Shown here one piece after another: positions 1-6,864 of a stretch of 6,864 nt of DNA (positions are counted from its first letter, which is position 1; the number at the start of each line of letters is the position of its first letter). The stretch is from a virus (taxonomy: Duplodnaviria; Heunggongvirae; Uroviricota; Caudoviricetes): positions 1 to 6,864 of IMG/VR virus record IMGVR_UViG_2875713109_000003, one strand, 5' to 3'. The notes under the pieces are model-generated. The model saw only the letters and a list, made by a program, of their open reading frames with translations. It was not told the DNA's origin and ran no database searches. A program made the position numbers and the translations under genes.

Positions 1-1014
1 TTAAAGATGATTTAAAGGATTTAACTCAACTGCTTCTGTCAGATGGTCAGGGGAAAAATGTGCGTAGCGCATCGTTACCTTAATATCTGTATGTCCAAGG
101 ATGCGTTGGAGTACAAGAATGTTGCCCCCCCCCATCATAAAGTGGCTTGCGAAAGTGTGTCGAAGAACATGCGAAAGCTGGCCATCAGGTAATTCAATTT
201 TGGCCCTTTTTATTGCAGTTCTGAATGCGGAGTAGCATGGCTTAAACAGAGGTTTTGATGTTCTGATGCGTGGAAGCATTTCGTATAGTTCATCACTTAT
301 TGGAACAGTTCTGTTCTTTTTTCCCTTTGTTTTGGTGAAGGTGATCTTCCCGGGACTGATTTGCATGCCAGACAGGGATTCTGCCTCACCCCAACGAGCA
401 CCAGTGGCCAGACAAATTTGTACGATCATCGACAGGTCTTTAGCTCTGCTTTTTTCGCACTCAGCAAGAAGCACTTTTACCTCTTCTACTGTCAACCAAG
501 ACAACTCCGCTTCATCAATTTTGAATTCACGAATATTTTCGAGTGGATTAGGAGCCATCCAATCATCCAGACGCTTCAATTCATTAAACATTGCGCGGAA
601 GTAAGCCAGTTCTAAATTCACAGTTCGTGGTGTGACTGCTTTTACTCTGTTGGAACGAGTAATTTTTCCGCTTAAACGTTGCTCACGATAGCTGGCAAAC
701 AATTTCGCATTAAACTCACTCGCAAGAGGGTTACCCATTGCTATGCAAGCAAACTCCATCGTATCTTTTCTTTTCTGACCATCAGACAACGTAATACCGT
801 GTGCATTAAACCACGTATCAACAAGGTCAATAACACGTCGCTTATCTTTTTTTTCACCAAGCCAAGGCTTATCAATTGTTTGGTCTTTTATATATCGCTC
901 AAATGCCAGAGCTTCCCCTTTAGTTGCAAATAGGCGGCGTACACGCCGCCCATCCCTACCGTTGGGGAAGACCTGAGCCTGCCACTTACCATTAGCGAGT
1001 TTTGTTACTGCCAC
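1..1014 (-). CDS. int: Phage tyrosine integrase, P2/186 Int family, apparently full length (337 aa, GTG start at 1014, stop at 1-3)
   Basis: Translation strongly resembles P2/186 integrase from memory. The C-terminal region carries the tyrosine-recombinase motifs HVLRHTFASH, LGHT and MRYAH (catalytic Tyr). Length equals P2 Int. It lies downstream of the repressor as in P2/186. Any attL would be left of the window. Confidence 0.9.
   Translation of the reverse strand: MAVTKLANGKWQAQVFPNGRDGRRVRRLFATKGEALAFERYIKDQTIDKPWLGEKKDKRRVIDLVDTWFNAHGITLSDGQKRKDTMEFACIAMGNPLASEFNAKLFASYREQRLSGKITRSNRVKAVTPRTVNLELAYFRAMFNELKRLDDWMAPNPLENIREFKIDEAELSWLTVEEVKVLLAECEKSRAKDLSMIVQICLATGARWGEAESLSGMQISPGKITFTKTKGKKNRTVPISDELYEMLPRIRTSKPLFKPCYSAFRTAIKRAKIELPDGQLSHVLRHTFASHFMMGGGNILVLQRILGHTDIKVTMRYAHFSPDHLTEAVELNPLNHL
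125..133. repeat. Homopolymeric C9/G9 tract inside the int coding sequence (codons Met-Gly-Gly-Gly of HFMMGGGNIL)
   Basis: Nine consecutive C on the plus strand, counted directly. On the coding strand this is ATG-GGG-GGG-GGC. It is the only long homopolymer in the window. Confidence 0.9.
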
Positions 1015-1019
1015 GTTTT

Positions 1020-1568
1020 TTACCTTTGCGTGATTAACTCTTTAGCAAATATTGATAAACCGGGCTTACCTTCTTCAAGGTAACAGCACTTTTCAAATGC
1101 TTTGCTCCATTCACCATTGGCGGACATTAACTGGTCTTCATTCAATATATTGCTGTGTCTGCGGAGTAAATTTATTGCCTGCTTTTTTGTAATGCTAAAA
1201 TCATATTTATATTCCGTCATATACTCTACCTTCCGAGGCTGGGGGGTAATTGAAATAGGTAATACTGTGACTTTAACCCTGTCTGCAGGCGTTTGATACA
1301 AAGTACGATATGCTGCGTAAATGGCTGCCCTGTCTGATTCGTACTTAATATCTTTCGTTGAACTCCCTGATAAAGTGCGCGGCGAGATTTGGATGTGTAA
1401 AGGCTTTTCAGATAAAATTTTGAAAGATGGAAAATCCTTACCGTCTACGGTATAAGTTGGATAATCGTTATAGTTTTCCATCAAGTCATTAATGTTTTTG
1501 AATTGTTCAGGTGCTGCAATTGCAGCAAATGATGACAAAATTAATACGCCTGTGACTAAAACTCTCAT
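1020..1568 (-). CDS. Hypothetical secreted/periplasmic protein (182 aa) with a predicted Sec signal peptide; family not recognised
   Basis: ATG at 1568-1566 is preceded by a strong Shine-Dalgarno AAGGAGA (1579-1573) with ~5 nt spacing. The N-terminus MRVLVTGVLILSSFAAIAAPEQ has a basic n-region, a hydrophobic core and an AIA-AP cleavage-like site, with no later hydrophobic segment. The region is visibly AT-rich compared with flanking genes. It sits between cI and int in the same orientation, where P2 and 186 have no gene. Confidence 0.65.
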   Translation of the reverse strand: MRVLVTGVLILSSFAAIAAPEQFKNINDLMENYNDYPTYTVDGKDFPSFKILSEKPLHIQISPRTLSGSSTKDIKYESDRAAIYAAYRTLYQTPADRVKVTVLPISITPQPRKVEYMTEYKYDFSITKKQAINLLRRHSNILNEDQLMSANGEWSKAFEKCCYLEEGKPGLSIFAKELITQR

Positions 1569-1592
1569 TTATTCTCCTTACGATATTTAATA

Positions 1593-2207
1593 TCAGTCCA
1601 CGTTATCTATTTTGCTTGCCACTTTCCCTAAAACTTTTACATCAGAGGCCGCACACTCAAATGATGCAGGGCCGTTTTCAACACGAACTCGCCCGCCAGG
1701 CAGACGGTAAACCTGTCTGATGCTCGCAAAACCATCTATCTCAATCAGCCAGGTGCCGTCATTGATCTCGCCTTTATATTCACTGACGAGATACGTCGTC
1801 GATTCAAATTTGACAAGAAACGGATCTGTGGTGTTTTGAGGAATTAGGTGTAGGTCATAATGAATCAAGGTTGTGTTGTTTAGAATCCCATTTGTGATTT
1901 CGCTTAATTGCAAAGTTAATCCGTGATCTTCATTTGGCGTGGTTTTTGGAGTGCCCTTACCAGTAGTTAGCCAAAGCAAGGGTACACCTGTGTCCAGATG
2001 GCAGGCTATAAGCCAGTCATGTGGGAAAGTGTCACGCATCCAGCGGTTAGCCATTGTGCTTTGAGAGACGCCGAGATGATCACATAGAGCTTGTCTTGTG
2101 CTGAATCCATAAGCCTGAAGAATGCGTGTTATGGCCTCTCTTCCCCCACTTTGAGATGGAAAAATGAAAGTTGAAATCTCATTAGGGTTTTCTTTTGTGT
2201 TTGACAT
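1593..2207 (-). CDS. cI: 186-type CI immunity repressor (204 aa; N-terminal HTH domain, C-terminal oligomerisation-type domain, no obvious S24 autocleavage motifs)
   Basis: The N-terminal segment ITRILQAYGFSTRQALCDHLGVSQSTMANRW...LWLTTGKG resembles the coliphage 186 CI HTH region from memory. Size, position upstream of int and divergent orientation to the apl/cII operon fit. No GDSM-type serine protease motif was seen, consistent with the antirepressor-controlled 186 class. Confidence 0.8.
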   Translation of the reverse strand: MSNTKENPNEISTFIFPSQSGGREAITRILQAYGFSTRQALCDHLGVSQSTMANRWMRDTFPHDWLIACHLDTGVPLLWLTTGKGTPKTTPNEDHGLTLQLSEITNGILNNTTLIHYDLHLIPQNTTDPFLVKFESTTYLVSEYKGEINDGTWLIEIDGFASIRQVYRLPGGRVRVENGPASFECAASDVKVLGKVASKIDNVD

Positions 2208-2229
2208 ATCTCAATTGTGATCCTATTAT
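2201..2229 (+). promoter_or_regulatory. Candidate early lytic promoter (pR-like): -35 TTGACA (2201-2206), 17-nt spacer, -10 TATTAT (2224-2229)
   Basis: Hexamers read directly. The -35 is a perfect consensus with optimal 17-bp spacing, and its 3' end overlaps the cI start codon (2207-2205). It is oriented toward apl/cII. The predicted start lies ~70 nt upstream of the apl ATG. Confidence 0.5.
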
Positions 2230-2308
2230 CGCTTTTGTGGTGTTCGGTATATGTGCGAATACATCCGAATAGTGAAGTTTTTAAACACAAACTGAGGAAT
2301 AGTGCATC
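2208..2308. promoter_or_regulatory. Lysis-lysogeny switch region between divergent cI and apl; expected to hold CI/Apl operators and a leftward pL-like promoter
   Basis: 101-bp non-coding gap between divergently oriented regulators. In 186, pR and pL are face-to-face. A weak leftward candidate is -35 TTGAAA (2327-2322) with -10 CACTAT (2304-2299) on the minus strand. Short direct repeats CGAATA occur at 2256-2261 and 2266-2271. Operators cannot be assigned with confidence. Confidence 0.4.
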
Positions 2309-2545
2309 ATGAAAAGTAATTTTTCAATGCGCCCCAGCATCAACCTTGTGATATCTGAGCCATTCATCACACTGGATGAGTTCTGTCGTCGTACTGGTTA
2401 CAAGCCTAGCTATGCCCGCCAAATGATCCGGGAAAACCGCCTTCCCATCAGGAAAAAAGCCGGAGTTAACAGCCTTATCGAAATCAACATGTTCGCGTTG
2501 ACGATGGAAGCGGCCCAAGGCTGCGAAGTCGCAATGCAAGCCTGA
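2309..2545 (+). CDS. apl: Apl/Cox-family excisionase and transcriptional regulator (78 aa)
   Basis: First gene of the rightward operon. The HTH-like segment ITLDEFCRRTGYKPSYARQMIRENRLP resembles P2 Cox and 186 Apl from memory. SD GAGGA (2294-2298) lies ~10 nt upstream of the ATG. Confidence 0.65.
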   Translation: MKSNFSMRPSINLVISEPFITLDEFCRRTGYKPSYARQMIRENRLPIRKKAGVNSLIEINMFALTMEAAQGCEVAMQA

Positions 2546-2579
2546 TAGTTCCATTTTGGGATAGAAAAGGTGTTACATC

Positions 2580-3089
2580 ATGTTTGATTATCGTGTTTCC
2601 AAACATCCGCATTTTGATGAAGCCTGCCGGGCTTTCGCACTGCGTCACAACATGGCAAAGCTGGCAGAACGCGCGGGAATGAACGTCCAGACGCTGCGTA
2701 ACAAGCTTAACCCGGAACAATCACATCAGCTCACGCCGTCAGAAATCTGGCTGCTTACCGATCTGACTGAAGATTCAACGCTGGTAGATGGTTTTCTGGC
2801 ACAGATTCATTGTCTGCCATGTGTACCGATTAATGAGGTGGCAAAAGAGAAACTGCCACATTACGTCATGAGCGCAACCGCAGAGATCGGGCGTGTTGCT
2901 GCAGGTGCGGTATCTGGCGATGTAAAAACCAGTGCAGGTCGTCGTGATGCTATCAGCAGCATTAACTCTGTAACACGACTGATGGCGCTGGCTGCTGTGT
3001 CATTGCAGGCCCGTTTACAGGCTAACCCTGCGATGGCGAGTGCAGTTGATACCGTGACTGGCCTCGGTGCTTCATTCGGTTTGCTGTGA
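2580..3089 (+). CDS. cII: Phage 186 CII-family regulatory protein (169 aa), activator of lysogenic establishment
   Basis: Translation MFDYRVSKHPHFDEACRAFALRHNMAKLAERAGMNVQTLRNKLNPEQ... closely matches my recollection of 186 CII. Length equals 186 CII. Position immediately after apl fits. Confidence 0.85.
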   Translation: MFDYRVSKHPHFDEACRAFALRHNMAKLAERAGMNVQTLRNKLNPEQSHQLTPSEIWLLTDLTEDSTLVDGFLAQIHCLPCVPINEVAKEKLPHYVMSATAEIGRVAAGAVSGDVKTSAGRRDAISSINSVTRLMALAAVSLQARLQANPAMASAVDTVTGLGASFGLL

Positions 3090-3096
3090 GGTGCTT

Positions 3097-3297
3097 ATGC
3101 TGACGAAAGAACCATCATTTGCATCGCTGCTGGTAAAACAAAGTCCGGCAATGCACTACGGTCACGGCTGGATAATGGGTAAGGATGGTAAACGCTGGCA
3201 TCCGTGCCGTTCACAAGATGAATTGCTGGCAGAACTATCAACGAAAAAACGGGGGAACAAATGGCTATTGAAGGCGCTGCGGCGACTGTTCCATTAA
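3097..3297 (+). CDS. Small early protein (66 aa), hypothetical; positional analogue of 186 fil
   Basis: ATG at 3097 is preceded by SD GAGGTG (3089-3094), which overlaps the cII stop. The upstream ATG at 3067 in the ORF track lies inside cII and lacks an SD. Function is inferred from position only. Confidence 0.5.
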   Translation: MLTKEPSFASLLVKQSPAMHYGHGWIMGKDGKRWHPCRSQDELLAELSTKKRGNKWLLKALRRLFH

Positions 3298-3602
3298 GCC
3301 CCGGCGAACGCCTGAATGGACTTAATCATATTGCGGAGTTAAGGGCGAAAGTTTTTGGCCTGAATATTGAGTCAGAGCTTGAGCGGTTTATTAAAGAGAT
3401 GCGTGATCCACGGGATATTAATAGCGAACAAAATAAACGGGCACTGGCTGCCATATTCTTTATAGCAAAAATTCCAGCTGAACGTCATAGCATCAGCATT
3501 AATGAGCTGACCACTGACGAAAAGCGGGAGTTGATTAAAGTAATGAATCATCTTCGTGCAGTGGTGAGCTTATTTCCCAGACGGCTAGCCATGCCGAATT
3601 AA
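3261..3602 (+). CDS. Hypothetical phage early protein (113 aa)
   Basis: ORF in the same operon orientation with G-rich SD GGGGGA (3251-3256). It overlaps the preceding gene by 37 nt in a different frame. Mixed charged and hydrophobic composition. No family recognised. Confidence 0.5.
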   Translation: MAIEGAAATVPLSPGERLNGLNHIAELRAKVFGLNIESELERFIKEMRDPRDINSEQNKRALAAIFFIAKIPAERHSISINELTTDEKRELIKVMNHLRAVVSLFPRRLAMPN

Positions 3603-3669
3603 CCAATTAATGAAATTCATGGCGTAAACCCGCCGGGCATTCCTTTATCTAAATTCAGGAGAATTGATT

Positions 3670-3903
3670 ATGCGTAATATTGAAACCCTCTCGACTAAAA
3701 GCGGACCGGATGACGCAGGACTTAATATTTTACTGACAGAGGCTCGTCTGGAAGAACGTCGGGCAAGGGCTGAGGCAATGGCTGCCCGCCTTGATAGCCT
3801 TGCGTGTCATATTACATCCCGCCAGCTAAGCCACGTCGAAGCAGCAGAACTGCTACGTGTGACCGCTGAAGCAATCCAGAACGAAGCGCAGGAGGTCCAC
3901 TAA
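3670..3903 (+). CDS. Hypothetical small phage protein (77 aa), alanine/arginine-rich and probably helical
   Basis: ATG at 3670 is preceded by SD AGGAG (3656-3660). The TTG at 3664 used by the ORF track is less likely. The stop overlaps the next start (TAATG at 3901-3905). Confidence 0.55.
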   Translation: MRNIETLSTKSGPDDAGLNILLTEARLEERRARAEAMAARLDSLACHITSRQLSHVEAAELLRVTAEAIQNEAQEVH

Positions 3904-4130
3904 TGGCTGATGCAATGGATCTCGTACAGCAGCGCGTTGAAGAAGAACGCCAGCGCCATATCCGTGCTGCCCGTGCCAAAACACCGGGCGTGTCCCGCGT
4001 GCTTTGCATTGAGTGTGAAGCGCCAATTCCGCCAGCACGCCGCCGTGCCATTCCGGGTGTGCAGCTTTGCATTACCTGTCAGGAAATCGCAGAGCTGAAA
4101 GGCAAACATTACAACGGAGGTGCTGTATGA
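3903..4130 (+). CDS. TraR/DksA-family C4-type zinc-finger protein (75 aa)
   Basis: Two CxxC pairs with appropriate spacing (CIEC ... CITC) and an arginine-rich N-terminal helix, typical of phage TraR-like proteins. SD GGAGG (3891-3895). The stop overlaps the dam start (ATGA at 4127-4130). Confidence 0.75.
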   Translation: MADAMDLVQQRVEEERQRHIRAARAKTPGVSRVLCIECEAPIPPARRRAIPGVQLCITCQEIAELKGKHYNGGAV

Positions 4131-5191
4131 GCACCATCCTGAAATGGGCGGGAAATAAAACCGCCATAATGTCCGAACTGAAAAAACATCTTCCTGCTGG
4201 CCCGCGACTGGTTGAACCTTTCGCTGGTTCCTGTGCTGTGATAATGGAGACGGATTATCCCAGCTATCTGGTTGCGGATATTAATCCTGATTTAATCAAC
4301 CTCTATAAAAAGATTGCCGCTGATTGTGAGGCGTTTATATCTCGTGCCAGTGTTTTATTTGAGGAAGCAAACAGTGAGCTGGCTTATTACAACATAAGGC
4401 AGGAGTTTAATTACTCAACTGAAATTACTGATTTCATGAAAGCGGTATATTTCCTGTATCTCAATCGTCACGGTTACCGTGGTTTATGTCGCTATAACAA
4501 GAGCGGGCATTTCAACATTCCCTACGGTAATTATAAAAATCCGTATTTCCCTGAAAAAGAAATTCGCGCATTTGCAGAAAAAACCCAGCGAGCAACGTTT
4601 ATCTGCGCCAGCTTTGATGAAACGCTGGCGATGTTGAAGGCGGGGGATGTGGTGTATTGCGATCCGCCTTATGACGGTACGTTTTCCGGCTATCACACTG
4701 ATGGTTTCACTGAAGATGACCAGTATCACCTGGCATCCATTCTTGAACATCGGTCATCAGAAGGACATCCGGTCATTGTTTCTAACAGTGACACATCCCT
4801 GATTCGTTCTCTGTATCGCAATTTCACTCACCACTACATCAAAGCAAAACGCAGCATCGGTGTGGCAGCTGGCGAGGGTATCCGGTTTACGTGCTGTTGC
4901 TGTGATGTTTATGAATCCACTGGCAGCACTACGCGGTGGGCTGGCTGCCGCAGGCGCGGTGCTGCGTGTGCTCGCATCCGGCCCGCTGGCGATGCTGCGC
5001 GTTGCCCTGTATGCCATATCTGGTCTGTTAGGTGCTCTGCTCAGTCCGATAGGTCTTGTGGTTACTGCACTGGCGGGCGTGGCGCTGGTTGTCTGGAAAT
5101 ACTGGCAACCCATCACCGCATTTCTCGGTGGCGTGGTGGAAGGATTCAAAGCGGCGGCAGGTCCCATCAGTGCAGCATTCGAACCACTTAA
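4127..5191 (+). CDS. dam: Dam-family N6-adenine DNA methyltransferase; native C-terminus lost, with the frame reading on into out-of-frame tape measure sequence after ~residue 245
   Basis: SD GGAGG (4116-4120). N-terminus [11 protein letters not shown] and motif EPFAGSCAV (SAM-binding motif I) plus catalytic DPPY (4661-4672) are typical of Dam/D12-class methyltransferases. The segment IKAKRSIG (to ~4861) matches the Dam C-terminal region. After that the translation becomes Cys/Arg/Gly-rich ([11 protein letters not shown]), which looks like wrong-frame reading. The ATG at 4067 in the ORF track is inside the TraR gene and is rejected as the start. Confidence 0.75.
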
Positions 5192-5948
5192 GCCTGTGTT
5201 TCAGTGGATTGGCGACAAAGTGCAGGCGTTGTGGGGCTGGTTTACTGATCTGCTGACGCCCGTTAAGTCGACCTCTGCCGAACTGCAGAGCGCAGCGACA
5301 ATGGGGCGACGATTCGGGGAGGCACTGGCGGAAGGGCTGAATATGGTCATGCATCCGCTGGACTCCCTGAAATCCGGTGTTTCCTGGTTGCTGGAGAAAC
5401 TCGGCATTGTCAGTAAAGAGGCAGCAAAGGCGAAACTGCCGGAAAGCGTGACGCGTCAGCAACCTGCGACGGTGAATACAGACGGTAAAGTGATGATGCC
5501 ATCAGGTGGCTTTCCGTCATGGGGATATGGCTTTGCGGGGATGTATGACAGTGGGGGGTATATCCCGCGCGGGCAGTTCGGTATTGTCGGTGAAAACGGG
5601 CCTGAAATTGTCAACGGTCCGGCAAATGTGACCAGCCGGAGAAATACAGCTGCACTGGCTGCCGTTGTTGCCGGAATGATGGGCGTTGCTGCTGCGCCTG
5701 CAGAGCTTCCGCCGTTACATCCTTTGGCACTTCCCACGAAAGGCGGTGAAGCGATGATTAATCGCGCAGCCACTGTGACGCCCGTTTACCGGATTGAGGC
5801 ACCGACGCAGATCATCATCCAGACGCAACCAGGACAAAGTGCGCAGGATATTGCGCGGGAGGTGGCCCGCCAGCTTGATGAACGTGAACGCAGGCTGAAG
5901 GCAAAAGCCAGGAGTAACTACAGCGATCAGGGGGGATACGACGCATGA
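4860..5948 (+). pseudogene. T: Tail tape measure protein (P2 gpT family), C-terminal ~360 codons only; 5' portion deleted
   Basis: GC-rich frame giving an Ala/Gly/Leu-rich hydrophobic segment followed by a C-terminal region typical of myovirus tape measure proteins. It lies directly upstream of U and D, as in P2. P2 gpT is roughly 800 aa, so more than half is missing. The in-frame stop at 4800-4802 limits the upstream extent. No convincing SD precedes the GTG at 4860. Confidence 0.7.
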
Positions 5949-6430
5949 TGATGGTGCTGGGATTGTACGTGTTTATGCTGCGCACCGTGCCGTATCAGGA
6001 ACTGCAGTATCAGCGTAGCTGGCGACATGCGGCTAACAGCCGGGTAAATCGTCGTCCGTCCACGCAGTTTCTGGGACCGGACAACGACATGCTGACGCTT
6101 TCTGGTGTTCTTATGCCGGAGATAACAGGCGGCAGGCTGTCGTTGCTGGCACTGGAGCAGATGGCAGAACAGGGGAAAGCATGGCCTCTGATTGAAGGCA
6201 GCGGCACGATTTACGGCATGTATGTGATTGAGGGACTGAATCAGACTAAAACGGAGTTTTTCCGCGACGGTATGCCGCGCCGGATTGAGTTCACCCTGTC
6301 GCTCAAACGGGTAGATGAATCCCTGTCCGATATGTTCGGTGATCTCAGTTCGCAGCTGAATAATCTGCAGGACACGGCAACATCTGCATTAAGCGATATC
6401 AGTAAAACGGTGGGAGGGCTGCTGTCGTGA
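5945..6430 (+). CDS. U: Phage tail protein U (P2 gpU family), apparently intact (161 aa)
   Basis: N-terminus MMMVLGLYVFMLRT... and the internal motif GGRLSLLALEQMAEQGKAWPL...GMYVIEGL resemble P2 gpU from memory. SD GGGGGA (5931-5936). The start overlaps the T stop (ATGA). Confidence 0.85.
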   Translation: MMMVLGLYVFMLRTVPYQELQYQRSWRHAANSRVNRRPSTQFLGPDNDMLTLSGVLMPEITGGRLSLLALEQMAEQGKAWPLIEGSGTIYGMYVIEGLNQTKTEFFRDGMPRRIEFTLSLKRVDESLSDMFGDLSSQLNNLQDTATSALSDISKTVGGLLS

Positions 6431-6864
6431 ATTTCAGCTCTGAACTGCTTAACAAAGGCAACAATTCTCCGGCATTCAGCATCAGTATTGAAGGCAGGGA
6501 TATCACCACTGTGCTGGACAACCGCCTGATGGGGCTTACGCTGACGGATAACCGGGGCTTTGAAGCGGACCAGCTTGATCTGGAGCTGGACGACGCTGAC
6601 GGAAAAATCGTGCTGCCGCGCCGTGGTGCGGTCATTACGCTGGCGCTGGGCTGGAAGGGGCAGCCGCTTTTCCCGAAGCGAAGCAGGGCGATTACCTGGT
6701 GGGTACGGATGAAAATGTGCTGGTACTTAATCGTACTTATGCCAACCGGAGCAACGCCGAGCGAGCGGCGAAAATGCAGTGGGAACGCCTGCAACGCGGC
6801 GTTGCGTCATTCTCGCTACAACTGGCGGAAGGGCGGGCAGATCTCTACACGGAAATGCCAGTGA
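6427..6864 (+). pseudogene. D: Tail protein D (P2 gpD / late control gene D family), disrupted: N-terminal ~80 codons in one frame, C-terminal-like sequence in another frame from ~6675
   Basis: The GTG at 6427 overlaps the U stop. Frame A gives MNFSSELL...RDIT...TDNRGFEADQLDLELDDADG...LALGWKGQPLF, which is gpD-like, then turns into W/C-rich nonsense and stops at 6862-6864. Frame B (open from 6600 to the window end) reads EAKQGDYLVGTDENVLVLNRTYANRSNAERAAKMQWERLQRGVASFSLQLAEGRADLYTEMPV, which is gpD C-terminal-like. Confidence 0.65.

Follow-up and report, generated by a model that had tools for sequence, protein, structure and literature searches.

How did the dam methylase gene of a P2/186-like prophage come to lie directly against the last third of a tape measure gene? 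The stretch of phage DNA analyzed here (6,864 bp, hereafter the window) sets a P2/186-like early arm directly against the distal end of the late tail operon. An initial annotation, made from the letters of the sequence, had read this as the scar of a large internal deletion that left a cryptic prophage, with dam running out of frame into the 3′ part of T. The existence of an intact sibling prophage, in which 23,803 bp absent from the window are still in place, bears that reading out and allows the junction to be resolved to the base.

Host locus, intact sibling and gene map

The window is identical (100% across 6,864 bp) to part of the chromosome of Escherichia coli PSS-07 (NZ_AP027673.1) and represents the inner part of a defective P2/186-type prophage of the Peduoviridae, close to the Elveevirus Cartapus. 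In PSS-07 the integration site is the CAT-anticodon tRNA-Ile gene adjoining mug. The whole remnant is 9.2 kb long and is flanked by 57-nt att direct repeats (2781-2837 and 11916-11972 in the locus excerpt, L001), the right copy of which lies within the CAT-anticodon tRNA. A near-identical, apparently intact prophage is found in E. coli 28A18CPO003A (NZ_CM148319.1, about 654.4-687.9 kb; locus L003, hereafter the sibling), and the two occupy a common chromosomal site between nfeF and the tRNA adjoining mug. Their DNA identity is 99.96-100%, with 3 mismatches in the ~9.2 kb of shared DNA (0.33 per kb), and the intact genes from int through the TraR/DksA gene, plus U and ogr, have RefSeq protein accessions common to the two strains. 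In the base-level comparison the window resolves into three collinear segments of the sibling:

Window 1-4880 equals L003 603-5482, with 2 SNPs.
Window 4879-6677 equals L003 29284-31082, with 0 mismatches.
Window 6675-6864 equals L003 31606-31795, with 0 mismatches.

The assignment to the Peduoviridae rests on several features. The tail module has the order T-U-D-ogr, as seen in the annotation of PSS-07 and the sibling, in the GpU profile match and in 96% DNA identity to Cartapus; a 186-type switch and early region (CI with PF07022 and PF16452, CII/CP76 and Fil) diverges from int-CI; and the element is integrated at a tRNA gene between att direct repeats. What a functional P2-like phage needs is incomplete here: A/ori, cos, portal, terminase, capsid, lysis genes and the full tail set are absent, and D, moreover, is frameshifted. 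The features of the window are as follows:

1-1014, minus strand: phage integrase, intact, 337 aa (PGAP "phage integrase", WP_124793600.1, the same accession in the sibling).
1020-1568, minus strand: 182-aa ORF between int and CI with an N-terminal signal-peptide-like segment (same accession in both strains).
1593-2207, minus strand: 186-type CI immunity repressor, intact (PF07022, E=2.2e-28; PF16452, E=1.8e-21).
2201-2229, plus strand: strong sigma-70-like promoter match, TTGACA-17-TATTAT, 11/12 (a consensus match only).
2309-2545, plus strand: gene in the Apl/Cox position, 78 aa (placed like the Cartapus "Cox-like excisionase and repressor").
2580-3089, plus strand: CII (CP76) regulator (PF06892, E=3.3e-44).
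3097-3297, plus strand: Fil, phage 186 filamentation protein family (PF10893, E=7.1e-24; PGAP).
3261-3602, plus strand: DUF5347 early gene (PF17282, E=3.3e-32).
3670-3903, plus strand: DUF2732 early gene (PF10809, E=1.3e-28; PGAP coordinates).
3903-4130, plus strand: TraR/DksA-type zinc-finger protein (PF01258, E=3.1e-11).
4127-4880, plus strand: native part of dam, codons 1-251 plus 1 nt of codon 252, of 285 (equals L003 4729-5482, base for base).
4879-4880, no strand: deletion junction 1, "TA" in both parents, 23,803 bp missing.
4881-5191, plus strand: out-of-frame run of the dam ORF through T DNA, 103 residues and stop.
4881-5948, plus strand: 3′ third of T, codons 671-1025 of 1025 (100% DNA identity to L003 29284-30353).
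5945-6430, plus strand: tail gene U, intact (PF06995, E=2e-44; WP_000980396.1 in both strains).
6427-6677, plus strand: 5′ part of D, about 83 codons of 366 (equals L003 30832-31082).
6675-6677, no strand: deletion junction 2 within D, shared "GAA", 526 bp missing, frameshift.
6678-6864, plus strand: 3′ part of D, out of frame and running off the window end (equals L003 31609-31795).

The window opens on the integrase stop codon, and the start of U overlaps the stop codon of T (ATGA). Pfam and PADLOC scans gave no match for the 182-aa ORF (1020-1568). A Pfam search likewise returned nothing for the 78-aa ORF in the Apl/Cox position, the product of which is a candidate excisionase and switch protein. 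In Rfam no family reached the gathering score anywhere in the window, and a promoter and terminator scan found no excess over shuffled controls, the 11/12 match at 2201-2229 being the sole noteworthy site. Because it faces CI, as in phage 186, this match is a candidate early lytic promoter that might drive transcription from apl/cox through the truncated dam (dam′) and onward. Downstream of it there is no convincing plus-strand terminator.

The dam-T junction and the DNA that was lost

The match to the sibling's dam ends at 4880 (L003 5482) and the match to its T begins at 4879 (L003 29284), which places the breakpoint at 4880. The left parent reads ...GGCGAGGGTA up to the breakpoint and AATCAGC... 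beyond it, the right parent reads ...CTGGATTA followed by TCCGGTT..., and the window across the junction reads ...GGCGAGGGTATCCGGTT... The two parents overlap by 2 bp, the TA at 4879-4880, and the offset against the sibling gives 23,803 bp of DNA absent between dam codon 251/252 and T codon 670. No inserted or filler DNA was found at the join, every base of the window being assigned to collinear parental segments; beyond the TA, the two parents have no similarity in the 30 bp flanking the breakpoints, and no IS end or att-like sequence was found at the dam-T junction. The initial annotation had put the breakpoint at about 4860, in the range 4800-4900; the range contains the junction, and the point estimate is 20 bp off. 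It had also described the sequence up to about 4860 as AT-rich. The shift in composition is real, with a GC fraction of 0.468 in 4481-4880 and 0.588 in 4881-5280 (0.577 in the T remnant), although native dam (4127-4880, 0.448) is AT-rich only in relative terms.

The missing interval takes in most of what makes a phage of this type. On the dam side the last 34 dam codons, the replication endonuclease gene A and the small genes after A, including a DinI-family gene, are gone. So are the head genes and their neighbors (a DUF4145 gene, portal, terminase, scaffold, major capsid protein, small terminase subunit and head completion), the lysis genes (holin, lysozyme and spanins), the tail genes (tail protein X, tail completion, baseplate V/W/J/I, fibre genes, sheath, tube and E/E′), a Gin-like invertase and the first 669 codons of T. 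In the Cartapus annotation cos adjoins the DUF4145 and portal genes and so falls within the interval equivalent to the deletion. The remnant should thus no longer be able to replicate, lyse the cell or form particles, while it presumably retains CI immunity, the integrase and a PD-T7-3-like cargo gene.

Among 5,426 complete E. coli genomes, one, PSS-07, spans the junction. In none of 58 matching phage records does any one place account for 80% or more of a query spanning the junction, and exact-match scans with the 33-nt junction gave 0 hits in metagenome contigs and 0 in GTDB species-representative genomes. The junction does recur in a second data set. The 6,992-bp Logan contig ERR2204704_471 matches PSS-07 at 100% identity, extends 6,574 bp to the dam side and 420 bp to the T side of the junction, contains the junction 41-mer and encodes the exact 354-aa fusion protein; the independence of ERR2204704 from PSS-07 is judged from the accession type (ENA versus DDBJ).

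The broken genes: dam, T and D

Upstream of the break, the dam product is a well-defined methyltransferase. The ORF at 4127-5191, the ATG of which (4127) is preceded by a GGAGG Shine-Dalgarno sequence, matches PF02086 (D12 N6-adenine methyltransferase) with E=3.4e-76 and 256.7 bits (cutoff 22), and positions 1-253 of the 253-position profile are covered by Dam residues 7-244. Structures of E. coli Dam (EcoDam; PDB 2G1P, 4GOL and others) align over residues 4-263 of the intact phage Dam with E~1e-72. The DPPY motif (D179-P-P-Y182, 4661-4672) and AdoMet-binding motif I (F32-A-G-S-C36, with Cys for the last Gly, as in the intact sibling) both align with EcoDam, so that profile, DPPY and motif I together place the protein in the D12 family. 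Both E values agree with the "recognisable Dam methyltransferase" of the initial annotation.

The C terminus is a different matter. Of the 285 residues of the intact Dam (WP_111970383.1), 251 are kept and 34 are lost, and 103 out-of-frame residues are gained, giving an ORF of 354 aa with its stop codon at 5189-5191; the earlier estimates of roughly 20-30 residues lost and an extension of about 110 need adjusting to these figures. Native Dam ends at G251, the equivalent of EcoDam R258, and thus falls short of a complete C terminus, which would reach to about EcoDam residue 270 and is likewise seen in DpnM. The intact phage Dam alignment goes on through residue 263 and that with DpnM to 259; the lost segment, KSATEIIAV..., aligns with EcoDam KKVDELLAL (conserved residues 259-267), and the continuation of intact Dam in the EcoDam alignment is KSATEIIAVSGP, which is replaced in the window. 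Beyond the junction the dam frame no longer resembles Dam, the EcoDam-like segment giving way to unrelated residues. This tail is Arg/Cys/Gly-rich, with 16.5% Arg and 12.6% Cys compared with 4.8% and 2.0% in native Dam, in keeping with the initial description of Cys/Arg-rich nonsense in the dam frame. In PADLOC the match to the best orphan-methyltransferase profile stops at position 255 of 275, with 20 C-terminal positions unmatched, and PGAP labels the gene "DNA adenine methylase, incomplete, missing C-terminus." Judging from its conservation in the alignments, the missing stretch belongs to the methyltransferase fold, probably as a structural element, and is no loose tail; given the general topology of class-I methyltransferases, it may be a terminal beta-strand. 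Because a C-terminal segment conserved with E. coli Dam and DpnM has been replaced, GATC methylation by the truncated protein (Dam′) is probably impaired. A single-sequence AlphaFold2 model of the 354-aa fusion was unusable (mean pLDDT 31, pTM 0.19), and no literature on the role of the EcoDam C terminus was found in PMC4417163.

On the other side of the junction, the frame at 4881-5948 translates to exactly residues 671-1025 of the sibling's 1025-aa tape measure protein and is 96.5% identical to Cartapus T. The initial annotation had called this the C-terminal ~360 residues of a tape measure protein followed by U and D; the frame and the two downstream genes are as described, but T itself contributes 355 residues and D is broken. 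The 362-aa ORF that opens with a GTG begins with about 7 codons of dam DNA read in the T frame, the remainder being the T remnant proper. The native start codon of T, its Shine-Dalgarno sequence and the late promoter are all missing from this remnant, and there is no Shine-Dalgarno sequence before the GTG or before downstream in-frame ATGs. Domain PF10145, residues 246-457 of intact T, is absent from the remnant, and its loss leaves the 362-aa ORF Pfam-silent. Since the late promoter, which lies upstream of the sheath gene, is deleted, transcription of what remains of T-U-D would be possible only from the early promoter. PGAP labels T "missing N-terminus" and both dam and T "incomplete; partial in the middle of a contig." We infer that dam and T are both pseudogenes, and their fused ORFs should not be read as a new protein.

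D carries a deletion of its own, which the initial annotation overlooked. At 6675-6677, 526 bp are missing; the parents share GAA, preceded by differing bases (CCCGAA versus CCGGAA). As 526 is not a multiple of 3, D is frameshifted, and PGAP flags it "frameshifted." Among the matches listed, the D region is contiguous only in PSS-07, the other listed matches being two pieces 526 bp apart, and the same two-piece pattern is seen in most of the 1,089 E. coli genomes that cover the D query.

Origin of the junction and relation to known elements

Taken together, these observations make it highly probable that a P2/186-type prophage lost 23,803 bp by illegitimate recombination while integrated and that D suffered a separate deletion. 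The loss itself, with its exact endpoints and size, is seen directly in the comparison with the sibling. In the proposed sequence of events, a P2/186-type prophage would have integrated at the CAT-anticodon tRNA-Ile gene adjoining mug. RecA-independent illegitimate recombination, neither homologous nor site-specific, would then have removed 23,803 bp in the integrated state, starting within dam codon 252 and ending within T codon 670, with the ends meeting seamlessly at the 2-bp TA overlap. The out-of-frame join leaves a dam ORF of 251 native and 103 nonsense residues and a T fragment without its own start or promoter, and a second, independent deletion of 526 bp with a 3-bp GAA overlap frameshifts D. 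Short-homology or homology-independent illegitimate deletions occur in E. coli, and the dam-T junction has their properties, being seamless and free of long homology, filler or mobile-element ends. Under an analytic random-join model the probability of an overlap of at least 2 bp is 0.16 for junction 1 and that of at least 3 bp is 0.05 for junction 2; the 2-bp and 3-bp overlaps are thus close to, or barely above, chance, and at junction 1 no more than chance. For this reason slippage, microhomology end-joining and topoisomerase-mediated joining cannot be told apart, and since the final junction alone survives, a one-step deletion is indistinguishable from nested successive deletions. As cos lies in the lost DNA, a genome of this kind would not be packageable, which argues that the deletion arose in the prophage state. 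With regard to timing, the prophages differ by 0.33 per kb, whereas the right chromosomal flanks of PSS-07 and 28A18CPO003A differ by 3.4 per kb and the left flanks by more. From these values we infer that in both genomes the phage postdates the split between the strains, and the deletion would be more recent still.

Other origins of the junction fit these data poorly. That P2-like phages, or a satellite-like derivative, naturally carry a short T-U-D module after dam, with no deletion at all, is barely conceivable. The sole hint in this direction is a prophage remnant in strain AHB21 with dam about 2 kb from a truncated T, and that element is a patchwork of PGAP-flagged partial genes with other breakpoints and at another site. 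As the initial annotation had stated, the early region and T-U-D lie apart in intact genomes: in both Cartapus and the sibling 23.8 kb separate them and dam is followed by A. An intact relative with T next to dam would have spoken for a natural arrangement, yet 0 of the 58 phage records cover at least 80% of the junction query in one place, and the Cartapus breakpoint equivalents lie ~9.3 kb apart on its cos-opened linear record. In addition, the dam and T frames are both cut mid-codon and joined out of frame, and without cos the element is not packageable. A mis-join by the assembler, with the real prophage intact, might be suspected from a junction seen in a single complete genome out of 5,426, and assemblers can be misled by P2-like prophages, which often occur in several copies. 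Such an artefact is nevertheless very unlikely, and we give it only a slender chance: the identical junction is reproduced, at 100% identity, in the short-read contig from ERR2204704, which also settles the concern about a contig join raised at the outset; PSS-07 has only one locus matching dam and T, and hence no second copy to mis-join; and the second small deletion in the same element is what real decay is expected to produce. The most probable source study of PSS-07 (PMC10621974; the strain name is not in its main text) used hybrid DNBSEQ and MinION Unicycler assemblies, which also speaks against a mis-join. Nor does a deletion made by Int, the Gin-like invertase, an IS element or RecA acting on repeats, in place of illegitimate recombination, have more than a small likelihood. 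The prophage does encode Int and, in the deleted part, the Gin-like recombinase; however, the breakpoints share TA only, their flanking 30 bp are without similarity, repeats linking the junction to sequence elsewhere are chance-level 8-14-mers only, no IS or foreign DNA is present at the join, and the att repeats lie at the prophage ends and not at the junction.

A further possibility concerns not how the deletion arose but why it persists, namely that it was kept by selection for a benefit to the host and that the ORF of Dam′ and its extension is still an active GATC methylase. The benefits that may be proposed are CI immunity, the PD-T7-3-like defence cargo, Fil and the loss of lethal lysis and replication genes. 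The genes from int to traR are all intact and identical to those of the functional-looking sibling, the cargo gene adjoining int matches PADLOC PD-T7-3 (E=7e-16), DPPY, the motif I region and the entire Pfam D12 profile lie upstream of the break, and dam has a good Shine-Dalgarno sequence. However, remnant and intact phage differ by only 3 substitutions in 9.2 kb, and with so little divergence the intact ORFs reflect recency and not purifying selection; the junction is known from one complete genome and one read set only; the Dam segment that was lost aligns with conserved EcoDam 259-267, the DpnM alignment extends through it, and the best orphan-methyltransferase profile is left with its 20 C-terminal positions unmatched. 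Finally, E. coli has a dam gene of its own, so nothing selects for Dam′ activity. We therefore consider selective retention together with an active methylase improbable, and its fuller form, a selectively kept, immobilized immunity and defence island with a 354-aa Dam′ that would be expressed from the early promoter and act as an orphan GATC methylase despite its Cys/Arg-rich tail, a shade more so.

Illegitimate deletion in an integrated prophage, the reading that we prefer, also agrees with what related elements look like. The sibling in 28A18CPO003A is like the remnant in site and gene order, and Escherichia phage Cartapus (NC_070909.1; Peduoviridae, Elveevirus) is 94.5-96.3% identical over cII-to-dam and T-U-D, but both differ from the remnant in that the full 23.8 kb still separate dam from the last third of T and D is intact, at 366 aa. 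The gene order of Cartapus matches that of the interval deleted relative to the sibling, with gpA directly after dam, although its int/CI/cox module and the cargo genes adjoining int differ from those of the remnant. The AHB21 element (NZ_OZ547226.1, L006) is like the window in having lost the replication, head and lysis core while keeping int-CI-early genes-dam and the end of T through U, D and ogr. Its order is int, CI, early genes, dam, partial J, I, partial H fused to partial T, U, D and ogr, and it is unlike the window in its intact dam, its fragments of J, I and H, and its different breakpoints, site and immunity module. The AHB21 and PSS-07 deletions are independent events, and the same kind of outcome recurs. 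In E. coli K-12, ogrK and yegZ (a gpD fragment) are a decayed P2-like remnant in which the replication, head and lysis core was likewise lost to internal deletion and end-proximal genes are kept, and prophage decay by deletion is reportedly the subject of work by Bobay and colleagues in PNAS in 2014.

At the level of the protein, the window Dam resembles EcoDam in the conserved DPPY and motif I regions and departs from it where the equivalent of EcoDam KKVDELLALY is replaced by 103 unrelated residues. At the level of the DNA, the junctions resemble known illegitimate deletions in E. coli, with seamless overlaps of 2-3 bp, no mobile element and the core lost, and nothing here is distinctive. 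Thus, the dam-T fusion is ordinary prophage decay, a known phenomenon, and PGAP already marks both genes as partial pseudogenes. It is a base-resolved example of a P2/186-type prophage turning cryptic, with little import beyond correct annotation and no new system. With an intact "before" copy at the same site, the pair could serve as a textbook illustration, and remnant and sibling may offer a natural control for the functions of grounded prophages, such as immunity and defence cargo.

Extent of the remnant and a second deletion

The PSS-07 prophage has lost sequence within the tail genes as well as between dam and T:

window 6427-6864, continuing past the window end: tail gene D
window 6675-6677: deletion junction in D, 526 bp missing, 3-bp overlap GAA

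This internal deletion frameshifts D, which the initial annotation had treated as intact, and is a second, independent event. The remnant of ~9.2 kb is enclosed by direct repeats at its attachment site (coordinates in the PSS-07 locus, L001):

2781-2837 and 11916-11972: att direct repeat, 57 nt, 96% identical
11926-12001, minus strand: attachment-site tRNA

PGAP annotates the latter as tRNA-Ile, whereas ARAGORN calls tRNA-Met (CAT); we take it to be a lysidine-modified, ileX-type isoleucine tRNA.

Related prophages in PSS-07 and other hosts

Over the whole loci, prophage DNA of PSS-07 (L001) and 28A18CPO003A (the intact sibling, L002/L003) differs at 0.33 positions per kb, while the adjacent chromosome differs at 3.4 per kb on the right side and at a higher rate on the left. 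This roughly ten-fold lower divergence of the prophage implies either recent independent acquisition or transfer of one phage into non-clonal hosts. The query spanning the dam/T junction matches only one locus in the whole PSS-07 genome, whereas the majority of E. coli genomes matched by this query carry at least two such loci. PSS-07 appears to lack a closely related helper P2-like prophage.

A related, decayed P2-like prophage is found in another E. coli strain:

AHB21, NZ_OZ547226.1 3243467-3260143 (L006): site rcdA/ybjL

Unlike the PSS-07 remnant, it occupies rcdA/ybjL, and it has decayed independently. It retains an intact dam and lacks the region from A through the head genes. Only part of J remains, and truncated copies of H and T are fused. 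Two of its genes are annotated as CI, and a KAP NTPase adjoins int.

Candidate early promoter and genes adjoining int

Two features lie near CI:

window 1020-1568, minus strand: 182-aa ORF between int and CI
window 2201-2229, plus strand: near-consensus sigma-70 promoter match (TTGACA-17-TATTAT)

Directed toward the early operon, the promoter match overlaps the region of the CI start codon; this candidate is a likely pR equivalent. The ORF has a hydrophobic, signal-peptide-like N-terminal segment (MRVLVTGVLILSSFAAIAAP), returned no match in Pfam or PADLOC, and may function in lysogenic conversion or exclusion. Beyond int lies a cargo gene:

L001 3130-4464: 444-aa gene inside the prophage, between attL and int, upstream of the window start at a distance of ~40 bp to 1.4 kb

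Its product matches PADLOC PD-T7-3 (E=7e-16) and also DUF4145. P2 phages have a known defence hotspot beside int. In the related intact phage Cartapus, the corresponding position instead encodes a RES-domain protein and an exonuclease, and this difference in cargo is consistent with the P2 hotspot.
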